Assembly: GCA_023380585.1 (NCBI GenBank)
Contig: JAMCRN010000009.1
Location: 2,524-66,523 of the forward strand
DNA: 64,000 bases
Reading direction: 5' to 3'
Origin: Candidatus Parvarchaeota archaeon
Lineage (GTDB): Archaea; Nanobdellota; Nanobdellia; Parvarchaeales; Parvarchaeaceae
Numbering within the stretch: the first letter of the stretch is position 1; each line of letters begins with the position of its first letter. The translations under genes were made by a program, and so were the position numbers. The notes under the pieces were generated by a model. That model searched no databases. It was not told where the DNA came from and worked only from the letters and a program-made list of their open reading frames with translations. Shown here piece by piece: positions 1,598-51,358 of the stretch.

Positions 1598-2515
1598 TCA
1601 GAAGGCATCTGTGAGGCAGATTTGCCAAAAATTACATTCGGAAGTACTGCTATGAAAAAGCACCTCGACTACGCCTCCGCCGCCTCCGCCAGTATTCCCA
1701 CTATAATAACTATTCAGACCACCGCCACCATTCCCTCCGTTATTGGCTATCACTCCATTATTCTTGAATGAAAAGGAGAGTATTACCAGAGGAAAAACAC
1801 CGAAACCGCCTGGCGCGTATCCGCAACAATTGGGCACGTTTTCCACAGCACCGCCACTTGCGCTGTCTAACAGGCTAAAATTAAAGGAATAGCTAGGTAG
1901 TTTCTCTAAAGGCGTCCCGCCATTATAACCTTTTGTGTCCACTCCCGCCGCTCCGCCAGTAGCTAAAGTGTAACCTCCTGGCTCCTCCGCATTAGAAATA
2001 AAACCAGCGGCTCCACCACCACTTCCTGCAAAGGACAATCGGAAATTTGTGGCATTTCTTATAAAGTTATTATGCGTGATTATTCCTTTATTGTATATAG
2101 ATGTAAAATTCAAAAAATTCTGACTCCCTAATGAGACTGTCCCATTATTTGTTAGATTCTCTCCAGACACCAATAGGCCGGTGGTCTCGTTTATTGTCCC
2201 ATAATTTAACAAAATATTTGTTTGTATGCGACTGTTGTTTGTCATTAAAAGATCCGCACCTTTCTCTATGTATACACCAGCTGCACAGAGTGAAAACCCA
2301 TTGGTATTTAATGTATCATTTGGTTCTAATACAACCCAACCATTTGTAGTGATATTCTCGAAAAGCAAAGAAAGGCCAGAATCTATAGTTATATTATTAC
2401 TTGTTAAGTTATGGCTGCTGCAGTATGTAATAGTTTCTGCGTGTACTGTAGGTAATACAAAAAATAATATCAGTACAGCTAAAAATAAGATATTAAGATT
2501 TTCCATAAAGTTCAT
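1598..2515 (-). CDS. secreted Asn/Gly-rich protein with N-terminal signal peptide (beta-helix-like repeats, many N-X-S/T sequons)
   Basis: The N-terminus MNFMENLNILFLAVLILFFVLPTVHA is a classic signal peptide. NxT/NxS sequons are periodic, and the C-terminus is Gly-rich (GGNGGGG, GGGGGG). Confidence 0.55.
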   Translation of the reverse strand: MNFMENLNILFLAVLILFFVLPTVHAETITYCSSHNLTSNNITIDSGLSLLFENITTNGWVVLEPNDTLNTNGFSLCAAGVYIEKGADLLMTNNSRIQTNILLNYGTINETTGLLVSGENLTNNGTVSLGSQNFLNFTSIYNKGIITHNNFIRNATNFRLSFAGSGGGAAGFISNAEEPGGYTLATGGAAGVDTKGYNGGTPLEKLPSYSFNFSLLDSASGGAVENVPNCCGYAPGGFGVFPLVILSFSFKNNGVIANNGGNGGGGLNSYYSGNTGGGGGGVVEVLFHSSTSECNFWQICLTDAF

Positions 2516-2611
2516 ATAATACTAACCTTAACGTAATTGACATAGTAAAATACCGAGGTATGTTTCTTGGGCTTCTGAAAAAAATAAATGTAGAGAGAAG
2601 GTGTGCTTTTA

Positions 2612-2644
2612 GGGGGAAAGAGACTCCTTTATTTCCACTGGAAT
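2612..2644 (-). promoter_or_regulatory. full-length ORB element (minus orientation)
   Basis: The reverse complement reads ATTCCAGTGGAAATAAAGGAGTCTCTTTCCCCC. This matches the TCCAGTGGAAA(T/C)GAAA ORB core, with a G/C-string element about 15 nt downstream. Confidence 0.6.
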
Positions 2645-2797
2645 ACATTTTGTTTTTATCCTGCTTCATGATTTTCATATTATTTTTTATCATACGTAAC
2701 ACCGTGTATTACTATTATTATAAATATTATTTTTATAGGAAGCTAATACTATTTAAATCTTTCGTTTGTGAGACGCTCAAAATCAACAACGATTATT

Positions 2798-2820
2798 TCT
2801 CCATTGGAAATTTTGATGGG
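2798..2820 (+). promoter_or_regulatory. mini-ORB element (plus orientation)
   Basis: TCTCCATTGGAAATTTTGATGGG; dyad core TCCAttGGAAAT followed by a GGG string. Confidence 0.5.
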
Positions 2821-2848
2821 TTGTTTTTAATTCTTTAAGAGAAAGCAT

Positions 2849-2884
2849 GTTTCCTATGGAATAGACCTATATTTCCACTGCAAG
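2849..2884 (-). promoter_or_regulatory. tandem pair of mini-ORB-like elements (minus orientation)
   Basis: The reverse complement reads CTTGCAGTGGAAATATAGGTCTATTCCATAGGAAAC, two adjacent half-ORB matches. Confidence 0.45.
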
Positions 2885-2967
2885 CTTATTTTATTATATT
2901 TATATTATTCTATATAGTATATATAATATAGGAGACTTTATTTTAAATTATTTAAACGACTTATTTT

Positions 2968-2990
2968 TTTCCATAGGAAATATAGGTGTG
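2968..2990 (+). promoter_or_regulatory. mini-ORB element (plus orientation)
   Basis: TTTCCATAGGAAATATAGGTGTG; the same dyad core as the other elements. Confidence 0.45.
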
Positions 2991-3013
2991 TCAGCATTCT
3001 TATATAAAAAAAG

Positions 3014-3046
3014 TTATATAACTAAAGTATATCAACTTTAGTTATA
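3014..3046. repeat. perfect 12-bp inverted repeat hairpin inside the AT-rich DUE
   Basis: tataactaaagt, then atatca, then actttagttata. Confidence 0.5.
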
Positions 3047-3106
3047 GTATCTATTTAAATAGAAATTGACTAAATAAAGTATAAAACTTAGTGAATTATT
3101 TTTGAT

Positions 3107-4366
3107 ATGGACATAAATATTTCAGATACACAAAAGTTAGAGAGACTGAAAACTGAAGGTAAAAATAAATCAAACCCAAAAGACATATTCAATGAATTTC
3201 TTTTAAAGAAAAAAATCTTTAAAGATAAGGAAGTGTTATCATCCTCATTCGTTCCTGACACTATACAGCATAGAGATGAAGAAATAGAATTTATTTCTAA
3301 TATATTCGCTCCGAGCCTTTTGTTAGAAAGAGTCTCGAATCTCCTGATATATGGTTTCTCTGGTACAGGAAAATCCTTAGTTACGCGTTACGTGGCAAAA
3401 CAACTTTCTTCTATATCTATGGAAAAGAATGTAAATGTACTCCCAATTTATGTTAATTGCCGCCTAGAAAACAACAACACAGAATACCGTCTAATATCGA
3501 ACTTATGTTCTATTTTTGGAGTAAAAGTACCGACAAGCGGCCTTTCTGTAAATGAATTGTATAAAAAAATGACAAAAGCGATAGATGTAGAAAATAAATC
3601 GATTATACTCATAATAGACGAAATAGAAAAGCTCATCCAAAGCGCAGGAGATAGCGTCCTGTATAGCTTATTAAGGCTAAACGAATCGATGGCGCATGCT
3701 AAAATATCGATAGTTGGAATATCAAATAACACAGATCTTAAATCATTGCTGGACCAGAGGGTGAGAAGCTCGTTGAGTCCGTTGGAATTGGTCTTTAGAC
3801 CTTATAACGCAGTTGAGATAGGGAATATCTTAAAAACAAGAGTACATGATTCCTTTTATGAAGGGACTGTGGATGAAAGTGTTATACAAAAATGCGCTGC
3901 CATGTCTGCGCAAGAGCACGGAGATATACGAAAGGCTTTGAACTTGTTATTAGTCGCAGGGGATATAGCACAAAAATCTAGAAAAAGCAGAATAGAGGAG
4001 GAAGATTTAGACAAAGCGGTTGACGTTCTGGAACAAAATATAACAGAAGCGGTCGTAAAATCAATGACAAAACAGAGCAAATTGGTGCTTTACTCTATAA
4101 TATCTATCTCTAAAGGAAAAAGGATGGGGAGGGTCTACAGCGGAGAAGTATACGATACATATGTTAAATTAGCAGACAGATACGGTATGAAAAGGCTTAC
4201 TTTCAGAAGAGTCTCGGATTTAATCGCTGACATGGACTACAATTCTATAATAATGTCAAAAATAAGAAGTCATGGGAGATACGGCAGAACAAGAGAGCTG
4301 AACCTTGCATTCGCGCCTACTTTGTCCGATAAGATAGAAAACATAATAAAAAATAATTTAGTATAG
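3107..4366 (+). CDS. orc1: Orc1/Cdc6 origin recognition / replication initiation protein
   Basis: AAA+ Walker A (LLIYGFSGTGKSL) and Walker B (IILIIDEIEKL), plus a winged-helix C-terminal region. It sits immediately downstream of the ORB cluster. An A/T box-like tatatata sits about 25-30 nt upstream of the ATG, consistent with a leaderless start. Confidence 0.9.
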   Translation: MDINISDTQKLERLKTEGKNKSNPKDIFNEFLLKKKIFKDKEVLSSSFVPDTIQHRDEEIEFISNIFAPSLLLERVSNLLIYGFSGTGKSLVTRYVAKQLSSISMEKNVNVLPIYVNCRLENNNTEYRLISNLCSIFGVKVPTSGLSVNELYKKMTKAIDVENKSIILIIDEIEKLIQSAGDSVLYSLLRLNESMAHAKISIVGISNNTDLKSLLDQRVRSSLSPLELVFRPYNAVEIGNILKTRVHDSFYEGTVDESVIQKCAAMSAQEHGDIRKALNLLLVAGDIAQKSRKSRIEEEDLDKAVDVLEQNITEAVVKSMTKQSKLVLYSIISISKGKRMGRVYSGEVYDTYVKLADRYGMKRLTFRRVSDLIADMDYNSIIMSKIRSHGRYGRTRELNLAFAPTLSDKIENIIKNNLV

Positions 4367-4414: not shown

Positions 4415-7400
4415 ATGAAGCGTTTTCTTTTGGGGAAGAGATCCCAATCAGCATTGGAGTATCTAACAACGTACGCCTGGGAGTTTGCTCTTATAATTTT
4501 AGTGGTTGTTGCGCTGTTTTATACAGGCGTGTTCAATACCTCCGGATTCTTCTCATCCGCACCCGTTTTTTCTGGATTCAGCGGTATTTCGATACAGAAT
4601 GTAGTAGCAAATTCCACTGTAGTTGAACTGTCAATGGTCAATGATGAGAACTTTGGAGTAAACATTACAAATATGGCGCTCGATTACAACGGTCAGAATT
4701 TCACTGTGTTCTCATGCACAGAGTATTCACTATATCCTGGTGAGAACACAATCTGCGCTTTTGTGGGATCTTTCCCCCAAAGACGTATATCTACACACTT
4801 GTACATAGACTACAGTACAAACTCAATAAACACTCTATCAGCAGGGAGTATACTATTCTCTCCATCTAACTCCGCTGTCAAGTTCCCATTCATAAAAACA
4901 GAATTAAACTTCACAATAACAAATCTACAGAGCACAGCGACGTCGGCGCCATTCCAGCAAGAGATAACTTTTGATCCGCAGTTCCTGCAGCAGTACGAAT
5001 CCAGCAACCTCGGCAATATACGATTCTATGAAGGAGCACAAGAGTTATACAGCTGGTGCCAAAGCGGATGCTCCTCCTCTTCAGATAATGTAACATTCTG
5101 GGTAAATTTACCGAACGGTGTAGGCGCAGATTCTTCCCTGAATTTAACAATAGTATTCTTACCTTTGGCAAATTACGATGGTGTCTACGCTGGAGAAGCG
5201 CCACAGCTCTCCCCGATATACGCCGAGTATGATAATGGGGCTGATGTGTTCCCGGAATTGTATAATAATTTCAAAGGGACTACATTGAATGGCTTTAGTG
5301 GCGGGACCTATAAAATCGATAATGGTCTTACTATATATGACAATGGCAATTTAGTTTCTACCTCAGCAATACCAGACGGAAACACTGCTGTAACCATTTT
5401 TGGTCTGTTTGACTCTGGCGGCGCAGTATACTCCGGCTCGGGTAGTACATATGCATTGGGTTATGATTTTTACGACGGCAGCGGAGGAACAGGGCTTAGT
5501 TATGCTTTGAACTCAAATTCCGGTGGCAATGTAAATTGCGAAAATTTCGACACAAATAAATCTTGGGGTGCGTCAGCCGTTCCTATAAATACAACAGGTT
5601 TTTATTCTCTTTATTCGATTTATAAATCAGGTAATTTAACGACAGAATTTTATTTCAACAATATTTTCGACTGCGCAGGGAGTTGGCTTTCTGGTAATCC
5701 TTTTTACAACTCATTCTCTTCAACGAGCGACTTTCAATTTTATACGCAGACAACCTCGAATGCCTATGAATATTGGCAGTATATATTTGCGAGAACATTG
5801 CCCCCCAACGGTGTTATGCCGACTGTCTCCGGGCCGCTAGTCACCAGAGTGCCTATAACTTTTACTAACTACCAAGGCACTTCTACGCCGTCTCCTTTCC
5901 AACAAATGGTAACCGTGAACTCCTCACATTTCTCTAAATATGAAGCTAATAATCTAGATAACGTTTTTTTCTTTTATTCTAATGGGACTATCGTGCCTTC
6001 ATGGCTTGAATCAGGCGATGTAGCTACGTTTAATGGCGAGACCACCTCTTATAATTTAGGCGGAACTTCGTCGTATATACAAGGGTCGTCCCCCTACGTT
6101 TTTCCTTTATCTGGCTTTGCTTGGGTCTATGATAAGAACTATGGTACTAGCAATTTTCAGGTAATATTTGAATTTGATGGTAACACTCAAGGGAGTAGTC
6201 AGTTCGAGCTAGCGCTCAGTACAAGCGGGCAATTGAGATTCTGGAACGGGTCAGAGAACTTTTTATCCTCCTTAACCGTACCATTGGATTCATGGAGCCT
6301 AGTTGGGTTTTCTGTGGATTCCAACAATATAAACCTATACGTAAACGGACAAATAGAGTCTTTCCCCACCTCTAACGCCCCTCAGGATCCAGGAGACGGA
6401 TATTGGATAATAGGATGGCAGAACTGCTGCGGTGATAGAGACTTTAACGGAAGCATATCAAACGTCCAGCTATACTCATCAGCACTGTCCAAAACCCAAG
6501 CTGATCAATTATATTTAAGCGGACCATCGGGGTCTCCTCTACAGAATGGAGAATTGGCGGGTTGGTGGCCTCTTCTTGGTAATGCGAATGACATGAGCGG
6601 GAACAACAATAATGGTGTAGTGAACAACGTTTCGTTTACTTTCACCAGTTCGGCAAGCACAAAAACCACATATTGGTTAAAGATAAGTTCTATTCCTGCA
6701 GACTCAACAAAAACAGTGTATATAGGATTCGCGCCTCCCTATATAAATTCCTTCAACAGACTTACTGGAGAAGCGCCACAGCTCTCCCCGATATACGCTG
6801 AATATGATAATGGAGCAAAACTGTTTAATGACTATTGGAATTTTAATGGAACGTCTATGCCCTCTGCTTTTAGCGTAGTGAACCCGAATAGCAAAAGTAC
6901 AATAAGTGTAGACAATGGATTATATATCGCACCATACCCCAATAATTACGCAGGGATAGAGTATAACAGTGTCTTTAACCCCGATTCTGTAGTAGAATAT
7001 TATGAGGTAAGCTCTTATTCAGTACCAAATTGCTGGGCCGTAGGAGAGGCAGTCGGCTCATTTAACAGCTCTGGCGGCTATCTTTATGTTTATGCGTATC
7101 CGCCTGGCAGCGTGTACGGCCAGCTCGGATGGAGTGCCGGTAATATCGTTTTAAGTGATGGGGTAATATATAACCAAATTTTTAGAAATATTACGCGCAG
7201 CAATGTCATAATAGGAGAGGCTTGGCCGTCGGAAAATTTACAGGTGTATTATGCGGATGGACAGGACAGACAGGTGTCGTCAACAAATGAGCTTCTAATA
7301 AAAAGTGGAATAAGCTTCAGCTTTGGGGGGTATTACTGTACAAACGGGTCCTCTATATATACACGTTGGATCAGGGTAAGAGCATATCCCCCAAACGGCA

Positions 7401-7435
7401 TTATGCCAGCCGCCAGCTTTGGAGGAGTGATATAA
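4415..7435 (+). CDS. large (1006 aa) class III signal peptide (type-IV-pilin-like) surface adhesin with internally duplicated ConA/LamG-like modules
   Basis: The N-terminus MKRFLLGKRSQSALEYLTTYAWEFALIILVVVALF is an archaeal prepilin-type signal. GEAPQLSPIYAEYDNGA occurs twice, about 525 aa apart. PPNG(V/I)MP motifs mark the module ends. GWWPLLGNANDMSGNNNNG is a LamG_3-type motif. The protein is rich in Asn/Ser/Thr sequons. Confidence 0.75.
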   Translation: MKRFLLGKRSQSALEYLTTYAWEFALIILVVVALFYTGVFNTSGFFSSAPVFSGFSGISIQNVVANSTVVELSMVNDENFGVNITNMALDYNGQNFTVFSCTEYSLYPGENTICAFVGSFPQRRISTHLYIDYSTNSINTLSAGSILFSPSNSAVKFPFIKTELNFTITNLQSTATSAPFQQEITFDPQFLQQYESSNLGNIRFYEGAQELYSWCQSGCSSSSDNVTFWVNLPNGVGADSSLNLTIVFLPLANYDGVYAGEAPQLSPIYAEYDNGADVFPELYNNFKGTTLNGFSGGTYKIDNGLTIYDNGNLVSTSAIPDGNTAVTIFGLFDSGGAVYSGSGSTYALGYDFYDGSGGTGLSYALNSNSGGNVNCENFDTNKSWGASAVPINTTGFYSLYSIYKSGNLTTEFYFNNIFDCAGSWLSGNPFYNSFSSTSDFQFYTQTTSNAYEYWQYIFARTLPPNGVMPTVSGPLVTRVPITFTNYQGTSTPSPFQQMVTVNSSHFSKYEANNLDNVFFFYSNGTIVPSWLESGDVATFNGETTSYNLGGTSSYIQGSSPYVFPLSGFAWVYDKNYGTSNFQVIFEFDGNTQGSSQFELALSTSGQLRFWNGSENFLSSLTVPLDSWSLVGFSVDSNNINLYVNGQIESFPTSNAPQDPGDGYWIIGWQNCCGDRDFNGSISNVQLYSSALSKTQADQLYLSGPSGSPLQNGELAGWWPLLGNANDMSGNNNNGVVNNVSFTFTSSASTKTTYWLKISSIPADSTKTVYIGFAPPYINSFNRLTGEAPQLSPIYAEYDNGAKLFNDYWNFNGTSMPSAFSVVNPNSKSTISVDNGLYIAPYPNNYAGIEYNSVFNPDSVVEYYEVSSYSVPNCWAVGEAVGSFNSSGGYLYVYAYPPGSVYGQLGWSAGNIVLSDGVIYNQIFRNITRSNVIIGEAWPSENLQVYYADGQDRQVSSTNELLIKSGISFSFGGYYCTNGSSIYTRWIRVRAYPPNGIMPAASFGGVI

Positions 7436-7536: not shown

Positions 7537-7872
7537 ATGGAAAAAGAAAAGACCGAGATTTTACCATTTTATCATATAGGGAGAGTCATAAAGTGTTTGA
7601 CGAAGATAAATTCAGACAGCGCTGATAAAAAATACAAAGCTGTAGTGGAGATGTGGGACAACAATATAATAACGTGCGAAACCGGTGGATTAAAAGTAGA
7701 AGACGGCGATTTCGTCGTTGTATTATTCGATGGTGTGGTACAGGGCAACAATGTTATAATGCATCCCTCCAAGATAACAGATAAGATATCAAAGCAGACT
7801 GGAGAAGAGCTCTGGGAAAATTTCAAAAAGTTTTTCGACAAAGCAAAACCTCCGCACCCCATGACAGGGTAA
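7537..7872 (+). CDS. hypothetical small protein, cotranscribed with the downstream ferritin-like/VIT1 gene
   Basis: A 111-aa ORF whose stop lies 2 nt before the next start. I recognise no motif. Confidence 0.45.
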   Translation: MEKEKTEILPFYHIGRVIKCLTKINSDSADKKYKAVVEMWDNNIITCETGGLKVEDGDFVVVLFDGVVQGNNVIMHPSKITDKISKQTGEELWENFKKFFDKAKPPHPMTG

Positions 7873-7873
7873 T

Positions 7874-9010
7874 ATGAAGGAGTCCAAAGTAATCGAGGAC
7901 TTATTCAGACAGGAAAACAAACACCACCAAGTATACTCCACGCTACTGTTCACAGAGAATAACCGTGCGTTCAAGGCCAGGCTGTCAAAGATCGCAGACA
8001 TAGAGCGCAAGCATTGTGATATATGGGCAGAGATACTGAAAGAATATGGCAAAGAGGTTAAATACAAGAATTATTACCTTCTGCCCTACCTGTTCGTTTT
8101 AATCAGAAGGCTTTTTGGAAGGAGAATTCTGGCTGCCCTCCTTTCTGTATACGAGAAAAACTCCATAGACAAATTCCTTTCAGTGATAAGCTATATCCCC
8201 CGAAAAAGGTTGAAGAAAGTCGTGAACGTGATAAGCGATGAGCTATATAATGAAAGCATATATGGCCCAGAAGTAGACGGTGGCATCTTCTCTCATATCC
8301 GTGAAGTCGTATTCGGCATGAACGACGGCTTAGTGGAAGTATTAGCCGCAGTAGCCGGGATAGTCGGCATATATCATGATAATCTTATAACGGCTCTTGC
8401 AGGTCTGATAATAGGTATCTCAGGCACATTATCTATGGGGGTAGGGGCCTATCTCTCTTCTCGTTCAGCAAAAGACGTTTACACCGCAGAAAACAAGCGT
8501 ATATGGTTAGAATTAGAAGCTGCGAAGAGGCGCGTTCTAGAAAGGTCTAGCCTTTCGTTTGACCATTCAAAAAATATCTTGAGGGATCTCGACTTATTAA
8601 TAAAACGCTTAAGAGCTAAGAGAGACCCTTTCTATACTATCCTCGAAAAAGAGAAGACGAAATATCTCCTAAGAACTCTCGGAGAAAAGAACAGTCTAGA
8701 AGCGAATAAGGCGACAAATCCATTCAAGGACGGGTTATACGTCGGCGTGTTTTATTTGTTAGGGGCAGTAATTCCCCTGGTAAGTTTCTTTGCCGGTGTG
8801 ATACTTCATGATTCGGTCTTTCTGAACTTAATTATATCCGTCATAGCCACCTCACTAGCAATATCACTGGTCGCTACGATAATAGCAGTAGGCACAAGCG
8901 AAAACGTTTTAAAGAGGATATCACAGTCGCTTTTTCTTAGTCTCATGGCAGCCACTGCGACTTTTCTTATAGGCAGCATAGTATCGCATTATATCGGAGC
9001 GTTGTTTTAA
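7874..9010 (+). CDS. membrane-bound ferritin-like protein (N-terminal rubrerythrin/ferritin-like domain fused to VIT1/CCC1 iron transporter domain; MbfA-like)
   Basis: The N-terminal helices carry ExxH (IERKHCDIWAEIL). The C-terminal half (GMNDGLVEVLAAVAGIVG...) is a multi-TM VIT1-type domain. Confidence 0.7.
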   Translation: MKESKVIEDLFRQENKHHQVYSTLLFTENNRAFKARLSKIADIERKHCDIWAEILKEYGKEVKYKNYYLLPYLFVLIRRLFGRRILAALLSVYEKNSIDKFLSVISYIPRKRLKKVVNVISDELYNESIYGPEVDGGIFSHIREVVFGMNDGLVEVLAAVAGIVGIYHDNLITALAGLIIGISGTLSMGVGAYLSSRSAKDVYTAENKRIWLELEAAKRRVLERSSLSFDHSKNILRDLDLLIKRLRAKRDPFYTILEKEKTKYLLRTLGEKNSLEANKATNPFKDGLYVGVFYLLGAVIPLVSFFAGVILHDSVFLNLIISVIATSLAISLVATIIAVGTSENVLKRISQSLFLSLMAATATFLIGSIVSHYIGALF

Positions 9011-13785: not shown

Positions 13786-13893
13786 TTTAAAGGGGCAACG
13801 GATGCTCTACCTGGTTGAGCTACGAGCGCATGCGCTCGAGGGGATTTGAACCCCCAACCAACCGGTTAAAAGCTTCATCTGCCCCCTTTAAAG
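13786..13893 (-). ncRNA. tRNA-like element with permuted T-arm/acceptor and acceptor/D-arm halves inside a long hairpin (candidate circularly permuted tRNA or tRNA remnant)
   Basis: The minus strand reads ..GGGGGTTCAAATCCCCT-CGAGCGC-A-T-GCGCTCG-TA-GCTCAACCAGGTAGAGC.. The T-arm and 3' acceptor strand come immediately before the 5' acceptor strand and D-arm. The whole element is flanked by TTTAAAGGGGGC / GCCCCTTTAAA inverted repeats. Confidence 0.35.
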
Positions 13894-26766: not shown

Positions 26767-28143
26767 TCAGGGAGTTATTTCTATATCGTCGTACGGCCCG
26801 ATATCGTCCGTTATATTATTTATCATTTGATACAAAGGAGGGGATAAAACTGCTATATGGCCTGGGTTAGACCTGTATGAAACGTATACATACCCATTCG
26901 GAGTAACTGCGACGCCAGGTACCTGGTCGCCAAAAAAATTAGGCAATGTTATATTATCTTCTATGGCATACGTTTTCGGATTTATGATTAAAAGCGAAGA
27001 ATTTGGCGATTTAACCTCTGTTAAATAGACATTTCCATTGGAATAAGTGATTGCTTGCGGATTAGGCCCGGTGGATATGTTTATTATATACGAATTTGTT
27101 GTGGAATTAAAAACAGAAACTGTATCCCCTTCCCAATTCCCTACCCAGACGGTGCCATTAACAGCCTGTACAAAAACAGGATAACTTAAACCAGTTATAT
27201 TCTTGATTATCTTGCCTGCTGATGGGGAAACAACGAACACGTAATTTTGTCCCGACAGCCCGCAAGTCGGCCATCCATTCTCATTAGTTATATAAACATC
27301 TCCAGTATCGCTTACGCCTAAAGTAGAGATACAATTTGTAGGGATAGGGATAATTTGGGTTACACTATTTTTATCTAAACTGTAAGCCACCAAATCTCCA
27401 GCCTTTCCAGTCCCATTGAACAGGTATAAGAAACTCCCATTTAAACTGTAAACGCCCTGTCCAGCGTTTGGTATGTTTACAATTTTTGCAGGAGCCAGGG
27501 TATTTATGTTAACAATAGAGAATGAATCGGTAGAGTTTCTGAACAAGATGTAACTAGAATTAGGGGATTTCATAACAAAATAAGGTTCGAAAGCACCGAA
27601 GCGTTTTATTACTGTATCCGTGAACGTTGATGCTATATCAGTATAATTTGAATCCGCCATAGCTATTATTATGTAAGAATTCTTACTGCTGGTTTTGCCG
27701 AAGACTGAACCTGTTGAGATGTAAGGCCCAGAGAAAACCTGGCCCGGCTCTGTATAATTTATGTATACAGAATATGAATATACAGAGCCAATAACGGAAG
27801 GACAAACTCCGGGGACTAGAAAAGTGCTCATGGTATTTGGTGGTACCAAGGTATTAACGTCTGGGTAGTCCAAGTATTTTTTAGATCCGGATATTAACTC
27901 TATTTGTGAGATGTTTATAAGATTTCCAGTAGAGTCCCCAAGTGTCAAATAAAGGCCTTGATTCTGCACACAGGAAGCAGAAACGGTTCCTAAACCGGCG
28001 AAGCCTGTGACTGTGGCTGATATACTTGAGGATGGGGAGAAGATACCTAGGGAGTATAGGACTGCGGCTACGATGACTATTATGAGAATGGCCCAGCCAT
28101 AGGTCATCATGTACTCTAGGGCTGACTGGGATTTGGTTCTCAT
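26767..28143 (-). CDS. class III signal peptide (pilin-like) surface protein with beta-propeller/YVTN-like repeats
   Basis: The N-terminus MRTKSQSALEYMMTYGWAILIIVIVAAVLYSLGIF is shared with the 49461 and 60250 genes. The rest is divergent. Confidence 0.7.
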   Translation of the reverse strand: MRTKSQSALEYMMTYGWAILIIVIVAAVLYSLGIFSPSSSISATVTGFAGLGTVSASCVQNQGLYLTLGDSTGNLINISQIELISGSKKYLDYPDVNTLVPPNTMSTFLVPGVCPSVIGSVYSYSVYINYTEPGQVFSGPYISTGSVFGKTSSKNSYIIIAMADSNYTDIASTFTDTVIKRFGAFEPYFVMKSPNSSYILFRNSTDSFSIVNINTLAPAKIVNIPNAGQGVYSLNGSFLYLFNGTGKAGDLVAYSLDKNSVTQIIPIPTNCISTLGVSDTGDVYITNENGWPTCGLSGQNYVFVVSPSAGKIIKNITGLSYPVFVQAVNGTVWVGNWEGDTVSVFNSTTNSYIINISTGPNPQAITYSNGNVYLTEVKSPNSSLLIINPKTYAIEDNITLPNFFGDQVPGVAVTPNGYVYVSYRSNPGHIAVLSPPLYQMINNITDDIGPYDDIEITP

Positions 28144-48501: not shown

Positions 48502-49380
48502 ATGATATACAAAGAACTAGGAAAAACCAAGGAGAAAGTATCTGCTATAGGTCTTGGCACATGGCAACTTGGCGAGATTACTGAAAGCAAGGTAGACGCC
48601 ATAAGGGCGGGACTTGACAACGGGATAGACTTCATAGACACCGCTGAAATCTACGGTACGGAGGACCTTGTCGGCGAGGCAATAAAAAACAGGAAAAAGC
48701 CTTTTATCGCTACTAAGGTCTGGCCATCTAATTTCAAGTATGATTCTGTTATAAAAGCGTGCGAATCCAGCCTTAAGAGGCTTGGTGTACCTCAAATAGA
48801 CCTTTACCAGCTGCACTGGCCGAATAAATCCATCCCTATAAAAGAAACCATGTCCGCCATGGAGAGATTAGTGGAGGAGGGGAAGATAAGGTACATCGGC
48901 GTAAGCAATTTTAGACCAGAAGAGGTGGATGAGGCCAATAAAGCGCTGAAAAAAAGCGAAATAGTTTCGGACCAAGTAGAATACAGTCTGATAGTAAGAG
49001 GCGCGGAAAAGAAGATTCTCCCATACTGCAAGAAAAAAGGTTTAAGCCTCATAGCATACAGTCCTTTAGGTCATAAGAAGTTAGTATCGAATAAGCATCC
49101 GGAACTTACGGAGACTCTCAAAGAGATAGGAGAAAAATACGGAAGAAGTCCGGTGCAGGTAGCTTTAAATTGGCTCATATCAATGGACAATGTAATAGCT
49201 ATACCAAAGGCTAGCAGCAAAGAACACGTTTTGGAAGATGCGGGAGCAGCAGATTTTGTGATGACAAAGGGAGACATCGCAAAATTAAATGAAGTGTCAG
49301 CAAAGTTCCAGTCAAAATCGCTTTACCAGATGGTCGGTCCTTTAGTTTCTGTCTATTTAAAGTTTAAAAGAATATTTTGA
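48502..49380 (+). CDS. aldo/keto reductase
   Basis: IDTAEIYG and LYQLHWP, the AKR motifs. Confidence 0.85.
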   Translation: MIYKELGKTKEKVSAIGLGTWQLGEITESKVDAIRAGLDNGIDFIDTAEIYGTEDLVGEAIKNRKKPFIATKVWPSNFKYDSVIKACESSLKRLGVPQIDLYQLHWPNKSIPIKETMSAMERLVEEGKIRYIGVSNFRPEEVDEANKALKKSEIVSDQVEYSLIVRGAEKKILPYCKKKGLSLIAYSPLGHKKLVSNKHPELTETLKEIGEKYGRSPVQVALNWLISMDNVIAIPKASSKEHVLEDAGAADFVMTKGDIAKLNEVSAKFQSKSLYQMVGPLVSVYLKFKRIF

Positions 49381-49460
49381 AATTCTGTCATCTTTTTAAT
49401 CAGCTAAAATTTACTTTTATTTTTTATAATTTTATATATCTAACAATAAATCATAAAATC

Positions 49461-51229: not shown

Positions 51230-51358
51230 CTGTGTTGTTGTGCATGCGCCAATCGAATATTTTATTAAAAATTACTATTCACTTTATAATAGTAAAGTAT
51301 TTATAGTAGTTAATCTCTTAAAACTTTAGATGCATCGGTCTTCCGGAGGAAAACAGTT

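Follow-up and report, generated by a model that had tools for sequence, protein, structure and literature searches.

In the 64-kb stretch of DNA analysed here (the window, to which all positions refer), a gap of 590 bases separates a minus-strand gene for a secreted Gly/Asn-rich protein (1598-2515) from an orc1/cdc6 gene on the plus strand. The gap is 75% AT and contains five origin recognition box (ORB) and mini-ORB sites, designated A to E, which lie within 2619-2993 in the strand order -,+,-,-,+, together with an AT-rich tract enclosed by two facing ORBs, a palindrome within that tract and, closer to orc1, a hairpin and a TATA-like box (Table 1). The region 2619-3106 is very probably a functional chromosomal origin of the oriC1 type, with its cognate orc1-1 gene beginning at 3107. 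Its Orc1 binding, MCM loading and firing are what we infer from work done on Sulfolobus, Aeropyrum and Pyrococcus.

Table 1. Features in and beside the gap upstream of orc1 (bits, score against the ORB matrix; pattern, TCCANTGGAAAT; both are described in the text)
Feature	Position	Strand	Details
GGGGG run	2612-2616		excluded from the origin; G/C string of the ORB in the earlier note
ORB-A, distal long ORB	2619-2645	-	core TCCAGTGGAAAT at 2631-2642; AGGAGT at 2623-2628, then CTCT; 25.6 bits; exact pattern match
Extra AT-rich spacer	2646-2796		between ORB-A and mini-ORB B; 75.5% AT; this subclade only
Mini-ORB B	2797-2823	+	core TCCATTGGAAAT at 2800-2811; weak extension; 13.1 bits; exact pattern match
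ORB-D and mini-ORB C composite	2849-2885	-	mini-ORB C 22 nt after ORB-D
Mini-ORB C	2849-2860	-	TCCATAGGAAAC; 2 mismatches to pattern
ORB-D, long ORB	core 2871-2882	-	core TGCAGTGGAAAT; AGGTCT at 2863-2868; 24.0 bits
Presumed duplex-unwinding element	2883-2969		87 nt between facing cores of ORB-D (ends 2882) and ORB-E (starts 2970); 87% AT
Conserved palindrome	2908-2919		TTCTATATAGTA in the window; family consensus TTCTATATAGAA; extended family form TATTCTATATAGAATA
ORB-E, proximal long ORB	2967-2993	+	core TCCATAGGAAAT at 2970-2981; AGGTGT at 2984-2989; 37.4 bits, top score in the window
AGTTATA repeats and hairpin	3012-3046		include palindrome AGTTATATAACT at 3012-3023; hairpin arms 3017-3028 and 3035-3046
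TATA-box-like element	3051-3062	+	CTATTTAAATAG; presumed orc1 promoter, ~50 nt before ATG
orc1/cdc6	3107-4366	+	419 aa; Pfam AAA_22, Cdc6_lid, Cdc6_C; only copy in the window

The placement of an Orc1/Cdc6 gene from 3107 onwards, made in an earlier note on this DNA, is borne out by the three Pfam domains of its product. Among PDB chains, the protein matches best the Aeropyrum pernix ORC1 bound to an ORB (2V1U_A, E 4.9e-82) and Sulfolobus solfataricus Orc1-1 (2QBY_A, 1.2e-79), followed at a distance by Orc1-3 (6.8e-42) and the Orc1-2-like chains 1FNN (1e-18) and 1W5S (1e-14), and by these matches it is an Orc1-1-type initiator. It retains the Gly-Leu of the initiator-specific motif (ISM; G145-L146), the RRVSD recognition helix and the GRYGRTRE wing, all of which are implicated in DNA contact in those structures (PMC3089459). 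The protein is identical to a deposited protein of a 'Candidatus Parvarchaeota archaeon', and its nearest relatives, at 63-75% identity, come from dozens of assemblies that are Parvarchaeota metagenome-assembled genomes (MAGs), including ARMAN-4 and ARMAN-5; the next tier, from other DPANN lineages, shows at most 48% identity. Sequencing runs such as SRR10273178, SRR33270693 and SRR7275281 also contain this orc1 in identical form. Judged by these relationships, the host is an uncultivated acid-mine nano-archaeon of Candidatus Parvarchaeota (DPANN), and the assumption of a Thermoplasmatales lineage in the earlier note was mistaken. Synteny and gene content, including genes for a class II aminoacyl-tRNA synthetase, SufB/D and fumarase as well as two tRNA genes, mark the window as chromosomal.

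The comparative data come from 23 Parvarchaeota-family orc1 loci (L001-L022 and L046, ~230 kb), which were obtained by an alignment-based contig scan, a scan with a single Orc1 protein having given no loci. From 40 long ORBs of the relatives only, with the window excluded, a 27-nt ORB matrix (consensus CTTTCCATAGGAAATATAGGTGTCTCT) was built and run over both strands with a cut-off of 8 bits. Such a scan had been suggested in the earlier note, and within the whole 64-kb window it returned four matches above 8 bits (ORB-A, mini-ORB B, ORB-D and ORB-E), all of them upstream of orc1 within 2619-2993, with no second ORB cluster in the rest of the 64 kb and no match past 2993. Simulated 64-kb sequences gave on average 0.56 matches above 8 bits and none above 20 bits, and simulated sequences of intergenic composition gave 0.002 matches per 591 nt. 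Among the 23 relatives, 65 matches fall in the 17.9 kb upstream of orc1 versus 2 in the remaining 212 kb, and dyad clusters occur within a few hundred bases upstream of orc1 in every one of these loci. An equally dense spread of the dyad elsewhere, which the earlier note had said would speak against an origin, is therefore not what was found. When the pattern TCCANTGGAAAT was searched for with at most one mismatch, it occurred 8 times in the 64 kb versus 1.38 expected, a number reached in 0 of 100 shuffles, and four of the eight occurrences lie within 2631-2981. The minus strand at 2612-2644 reads ATTCCAGTGGAAATAAAGGAGTCTCTTTCCCCC, exactly as had been reported earlier; of the further dyads, said to number at least four and to alternate in orientation, four do exist, but their order is not alternating and only one of them fits the stated pattern exactly. 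An isolated perfect mini-ORB, TCCAATGGAAAT, is present on the minus strand at 27031-27042, inside the gene at 26767-28143; it lacks the long-ORB extension, scores below 8 bits and is probably a chance occurrence. Scattered mini-ORBs are also found in Pyrococcus (PMC1904270).

The layout of the sites is common to nearly all family loci, and all 23 have ORBs of this type ahead of orc1. Relative to the orc1 ATG, most relatives have a minus-strand ORB at ~-315, a minus-strand ORB plus mini-ORB at ~-231 and a plus-strand ORB at ~-122, and the corresponding series in the window is -488 (minus), -310 (plus, weak), -248 (minus) and -140 (plus). The plus-strand ORB is found 92-144 nt before the ATG in all 23 relatives. 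The distal minus-strand ORB, which is at ~-315 in other relatives, lies at -488 to -632 in the window and its closest relatives, such that in the window, L001 and L002 it is ~170-300 nt further out. The composite of ORB-D and mini-ORB is kept across the aligned family origins; at the site of mini-ORB B, L001 has an aligned mini-ORB-like word, and the words of L002 and L003 are more degenerate. Of the 22 related origins with a placeable pair, 17 have their facing cores 87-89 nt apart (range over all, 80-98), and the tract is 74-92% AT. No other 80-nt duplex in the 64 kb is as unstable as the one starting at 2886 (dG -75.7 vs a mean of -105 +/- 6.3). Next in order of instability are 49363-49445 and 51251-51330 (dG ~-81), which are at gene boundaries and carry no ORBs. 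The description of the AT-rich tracts as more than 90% AT was roughly right for the inter-ORB tract, where 81 nt (2886-2966) are 88.9% AT and values of at least 90% are reached only in windows of at most 60 nt, but wrong for the 151 nt at 2646-2796, at 75.5%. Overall, the clustered ORBs, the AT-rich tract, the adjacent Orc1-1 and the retention of the layout in relatives support the earlier proposal that this is the canonical archaeal oriC/orc1 arrangement.

In regard to their shape, the sites have a conventional core and a lineage-specific extension. ORB-A is identical to Pyrococcus furiosus ORB3 over TTCCAGTGGAAATAAA, at 16 of 16 positions (the core strands of the P. furiosus oligonucleotides are TTCCAGTGGAAATGAAACTCTGGGGGG for ORB1 and CTTCCAGTGGAAATAAAACTCTCTCC for ORB3; PMC1904270). 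In P. furiosus ORB1 and ORB2, a GGGGG string follows on the same strand as the core, 8 nt after it (PMC1904270). The 34-bp ORB of the Pyrococcus type, consisting of the core, GAAACTCT and GGGGG, with the G-string 8 nt on and on the same strand as TCCAGTGGAAAT, is not what is present here. The GGGGG at 2612-2616 reads CCCCC on the core strand, lies 14 nt past the core (8 in Pyrococcus) and has no counterpart in any relative; hence, of the Pyrococcus-like ORB with a G/C string described earlier, the 16-nt core stands, and the G/C string does not, on grounds of polarity, spacing and lack of conservation. The extension conserved in the family is GGAAAT-NN-AGG(T/A)GT-CTCT (family consensus, AGGTGTCTCT), and in the window the core and extension read GGAAA-TAT-AGGTGT, GGAAA-TAA-AGGAGT and GGAAA-TAT-AGGTCT. 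A distant set of 40 archaeal Orc1-1 loci (Bathyarchaeia, Hydrothermarchaeota, Aenigmatarchaeota and others) has the extension GGAAA-NNN-AGGGGT(G/C). In that set, the core TCCANNGGAAA, followed by NNN-AGGGGT, occurs 66 times in the 40 kb upstream of orc1 versus 12 times in 420 kb elsewhere, and an inverted minus-then-plus ORB pair precedes orc1 in 31 loci. The ORB of A. pernix, which we take to read GGAAAC-GG-AGGGGT, would have its G-rich hexamer at the same offset as AGGTGT here, and this offset is seen directly in the distant loci. The Parvarchaeota hexamer is thus placed at the canonical offset of the G-string, but is degenerate.

The origin of Sulfolobus known as oriC1, with its ORBs and Orc1-1, was reportedly characterized by Robinson and co-workers in 2004. 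Like the site in the window, oriC1 of Sulfolobus/Saccharolobus has orc1-1 beside it, an inverted pair of long ORBs that flanks an AT-rich unwinding element, a third, distal ORB, and a short conserved non-ORB motif within the unwinding element. In Sulfolobus islandicus, the ORB3-to-ORB2 unit with the intervening unwinding element measures 130 bp (PMC12141716), compared to 135 bp from ORB-D to ORB-E. Studies done on Sulfolobus (Samson et al. 2013, PMC3607249; Dhanaraju et al. 2025, PMC12141716) found that one Orc1-1 monomer binds each ORB with a fixed polarity, that the inverted ORB2 and ORB3 flanking the unwinding element are each required for origin activity, that ATP-bound Orc1-1 suffices for MCM recruitment to the intervening tract, and that the start of replication maps to where the AT-rich tract borders ORB3.

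Based on these studies and on those of the initiator structures and of Pyrococcus (PMC12141716, PMC3607249, PMC3089459 and PMC1904270), a model for the site can be drawn. As in Sulfolobus oriC1, each long ORB would be expected to bind one Orc1-1 monomer with polarity, the winged-helix domain sitting on the dyad core TCCAnnGGAAAT and the ISM of the AAA+ domain on the AGG(T/A)GT-CTCT extension. ORB-D with mini-ORB C on the minus strand and ORB-E on the plus strand would face each other across the 87-nt, 87% AT tract, so oriented that the winged-helix domains would occupy the cores abutting 2883-2969, and the AAA+ domains would occupy the outward-pointing AGGTGT hexamers. ATP-bound Orc1 at D/C and at E would then recruit MCM hexamers onto the tract, where unwinding would begin and from which replication would proceed bidirectionally. 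The distal ORB-A and mini-ORB B may provide extra Orc1 binding, for affinity or regulation, and the palindrome in the tract would act as a second cis element. Because the ORBs adjoin the orc1 promoter, feedback of Orc1 on the transcription of its own gene is also likely.

Skew analysis proved to be uninformative. Within the window, the cumulative minima are at 2972 for purines, 3001 for AT skew and 13886 for GC skew. When GC skew was split per gene, the replication term was 0.002 +/- 0.015 vs a coding term of 0.07, and for AT at third positions the replication term was weak (0.058 +/- 0.021). The minima at 2972 and 3001 were rejected as independent evidence for an origin; they are explained by divergent gene orientation and merely restate it, since the replication term is about zero once the coding strand is removed. 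The GC-skew test proposed in the earlier note is thus uninformative for this window, with skew here reflecting the orientation of genes. The 65 genes to the right of the site comprise 45 plus-strand and 20 minus-strand genes (72% of coding bases plus), and the two to the left are both minus-strand; in relatives, genes left of the site are likewise predominantly minus-strand, and the skew minima within +/-6 kb scatter with gene orientation. The orientation of genes fits a rightward fork, as weak and non-independent evidence.

Several observations weigh against assigning an origin to this site. The G-string is degenerate (AGGTGT/AGGAGT vs AGGGGT), and mini-ORB B and ORB-D deviate from the consensus; no GC component attributable to replication survives removal of the gene strand, and the cumulative GC-skew minimum is at 13886 rather than at the site; there are only 2.5 kb of window to the left, which limits any skew comparison; and ORB-bearing origins can be dispensable, as reported for Thermococcus kodakarensis (PMC5663688). 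In one rival explanation, the ORB cluster is only an operator, which Orc1 would bind to autoregulate orc1 and perhaps to control the divergent secreted-protein gene, with replication starting elsewhere or depending on recombination. Such an operator would suit sites that are 90-490 nt upstream of the orc1 ATG and beside a conserved TATA-like box, the failure to detect replication-linked skew, and the origin-independent replication documented for T. kodakarensis (PMC5663688). However, an operator has no need of two inverted ORBs set a fixed ~88 nt apart, with the least stable duplex of the 64 kb between them; in S. islandicus, where the layout is the same, mutational loss of either ORB2 or ORB3 abolishes oriC1 activity (PMC12141716); neither the 64 kb nor 212 kb of flanking sequence in the relatives holds another ORB cluster; and the roles of operator and origin are not mutually exclusive. 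The operator-only explanation is accordingly considered improbable.

Less probable still, to the point of being very unlikely, is that the origin together with orc1 is part of an integrated plasmid or virus rather than of the chromosomal replicon. Archaeal replicator-initiator pairs have often been acquired from extrachromosomal elements (PMC4010727), the protein encoded at 774-1484 has several helix-turn-helix domains of the transposase/resolvase kind, and the gene just past orc1 varies between relatives. In contrast, Orc1 is a family-wide ortholog found at 63-75% identity across dozens of assemblies, the neighbours on both sides are maintained (the secreted protein upstream, and a 111-aa open reading frame (ORF) plus a VIT1-family gene downstream), housekeeping genes share the window, and a scan of viral contigs for the long ORB gave three isolated sites with no clusters and no orc1 gene among them. 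That the dyads are chance or promoter-related words in a region that is 75% AT and full of low-complexity repeats can be dismissed, as the intergenic-composition simulations yielded 0.002 matches versus the four observed, and as position and orientation are kept across nearly all 23 relatives while the sequence between the sites drifts.

The palindrome inside the presumed unwinding element is an unexpected part of the oriC1-type origin. In the family alignment (A2), TTCTATATAGAA forms a block of invariant columns. It occurs as one exact copy per locus in 20 family loci and, with at most one mismatch, in the inter-ORB tract of 23 of 23, and it is absent from the rest of the 230 kb, where 2.25 occurrences are expected. 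In the 22 origins with a placeable pair, the spacing between palindrome and core is 25 nt (24-29) on the side of the minus-strand ORB and ~51 nt (42-62) on the side of the plus-strand ORB; in L046, the palindrome is present and the ORB pair is not placeable. The same word is also found at L023:5801-5812, on a contig that bears the label of a Methanosarcinales MAG. Its Orc1 shows only 42% identity, and its ORB has a hexamer of the Parvarchaeota-like form AGGTGT; that contig may be mis-binned, or the palindrome may be more widespread.

For comparison, the unwinding element of Sulfolobus oriC1 contains ucm, a short motif that is essential for firing and that is bound by UBP, a nucleoid-associated protein contacting MCM (PMC12141716). 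The ucm is asymmetric, ATTATACAAA(A/C)(G/T), its consensus marks >300 UBP-bound genomic sites as well, and ubp genes are reported from Sulfolobales and Desulfurococcales only (PMC12141716). The Parvarchaeota motif differs in being a dyad, in being origin-specific within 230 kb and in being off-centre (25 nt vs 50 nt from the cores). The G-string here is degenerate. The idea that the palindrome is itself a ucm was therefore rejected, the likeness being positional only; because sequence, symmetry and genomic distribution differ, and because reports of ubp are confined to those two groups, the palindrome is regarded as a positional analogue of ucm and not as its homolog. Candidates for the protein that binds it are a dimeric factor, Orc1 itself and TBP/TFB. 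A more specific proposal, by analogy with ucm and UBP and put forward here as a tentative and rather doubtful one, is that the palindrome might be essential as a further replicator element, with a dimeric, lineage-specific factor binding it and acting between two loaded MCM hexamers; it would then be a functional analogue of ucm/UBP that originated independently in a DPANN lineage. The authors of the UBP study asked whether such analogues exist in other archaea (PMC12141716). The inter-ORB tracts of other lineages also hold conserved non-ORB words (Bathyarchaeia loci L054, L063 and L072, and L056, L064, L066, L067, L074 and L076), such as CGGAGT(A/G)(T/G)ATTC(T/C)TCTTCTAGAAGAAGAATCA, ACCTTTCAGAGTAT(A)TTTC and TTTGTACA/TTTCTACAAATAG, the last of which resembles the reverse complement of the Sulfolobus ucm core (TATACAAA).

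The remainder of the gap has features of its own. A spacer of ~170 nt, missing in most relatives, includes at 2749-2758 a TATA-like box, CTATTTAAAT, that is an exact 10-nt direct repeat of the box at 3051-3060 before orc1. The block TATTTAAA..TTTTC is kept in L001, L002 and L006, with a variant form in L003 (alignment A3). The spacer box may serve as another promoter, from which transcripts would run through the ORBs and the unwinding element. The TATA-like box of orc1, TATTTAAAT, is invariant or nearly so in the family alignment, and from archaeal TATA consensus sequences it is presumed to be the orc1 promoter. Between ORB-E, the last of the ORBs, and orc1, the hairpin has 12 of 12 positions paired, a 6-nt loop and a folding z of -4.1. 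The 12-bp perfect hairpin noted earlier is thus real, but it lies outside the ORB cluster and is not surrounded by dyads. The stretch from ORB-E to the TATA box of orc1 also contains AGTTATA(TAA) words, which recur every ~14 nt and are preserved among the relatives as AGTTAT(A/T)TAA-N4-AGTTATATAACT. Only the window has the perfect hairpin, which was rejected as an origin element common to the family, since relatives keep the AGTTATATAA words and not the hairpin; by this comparison it is a local by-product of the AGTTATA words. Gene callers place a 66-aa minus-strand ORF, with no Pfam match, at the equivalent of 2493-2693. The ORFs 2493-2702 (minus) and 2560-2838 (plus) show no conserved coding similarity in relatives, the sole matches being ~10 residues that are translated ORBs, and the ORFs called over 2493-2838 can be viewed as spurious, as had been proposed. 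An Rfam search of the gap gave nothing at gathering score, with one sub-threshold match, to Srn266 (21.6 bits vs a gathering score of 63).

Among the neighbouring genes, the secreted-protein gene at 1598-2515 is real; it is syntenic in relatives, whose proteins show 30-35% identity (lowest E value, 1e-22). Two genes left of the origin, 774-1484 on the minus strand encodes a 236-aa protein with four tandem helix-turn-helix repeats (HTH_23, HTH_28 and similar families), and a homolog is near the origin in two relatives only (L013 and L017). The gene directly downstream of orc1 differs among relatives and in the window encodes a 1006-aa LamG-domain protein (4415-7435), which is matched in few relatives only and lies between orc1 and the 111-aa ORF/VIT1 pair. 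The 111-aa ORF (7537-7872, plus strand) has no Pfam or PDB match and abuts the VIT1-family gene (7874-9010, plus strand), and the pair is kept in synteny 2-3 kb downstream of orc1 in 11-13 relatives. This ORF was tried and rejected as a UBP-like factor, as it is syntenic with orc1 but matches nothing in Pfam or PDB and abuts VIT1. One MAG, TL2-4.bin18, holds two differing orc1-origin loci, L012 and L018; the ORB sites of L012 equal those of ARMAN-4 (L011) exactly in sequence and position, and L018 falls in another subgroup. Two populations binned together, rather than two origins, are the likely explanation.

Comparison with other characterized origins places the Parvarchaeota site within a familiar range. 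The oriC of Pyrococcus abyssi and P. furiosus (Matsunaga et al. 2007, PMC1904270) likewise lies directly upstream of cdc6/orc1, has two AT-rich regions, mixes long ORBs with 13-bp mini-ORBs, and arranges the long ORBs as an inverted repeat. Pyrococcus ORB1 and ORB2, in contrast, continue as GAAACTCT-GGGGG(G), whereas the window continues as AAAGGAGTCTCT (family consensus, ATAGGTGTCTCT), and Pyrococcus has a second ORB cluster in a downstream gene (dp1), whereas none follows 2993 here and the downstream genes differ. A. pernix, whose ORC1-ORB4 complex (2V1U) is the best PDB match of the initiator, differs in its hexamer, AGGGGT vs AGGTGT/AGGAGT/AGGTCT, and the genome here is 42% GC and from an acidophilic rather than a hyperthermophilic organism. 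In haloarchaeal oriC1 (Wu et al., reviewed in PMC4010727), the pairing of oriC1 and cdc6 is also conserved, and there, too, a lineage-specific 3' ORB extension is found, which is important for function; haloarchaea lengthen the G-string, whereas Parvarchaeota weaken it and add a conserved CTCT.

The literature searched yielded no description of an origin for Parvarchaeota/ARMAN genomes. These genomes exist as metagenome assemblies only, and the site, as read here, provides them with a defined replication start that may be used to rotate closed genomes and to anchor coverage-based estimates of growth rate for acid-mine symbionts. Apart from the palindrome, the arrangement is that of a textbook, ordinary oriC1-type origin, and its presence here would mean that the oriC1 design (inverted ORB pair, short AT tract and adjacent Orc1-1) reaches into a fast-evolving, reduced DPANN lineage, with a spacing of ~88 bp that is almost invariant. 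The palindrome is the one feature of the origin that could lead further, as it may point to an origin factor other than Orc1 in archaea outside the Crenarchaeota.

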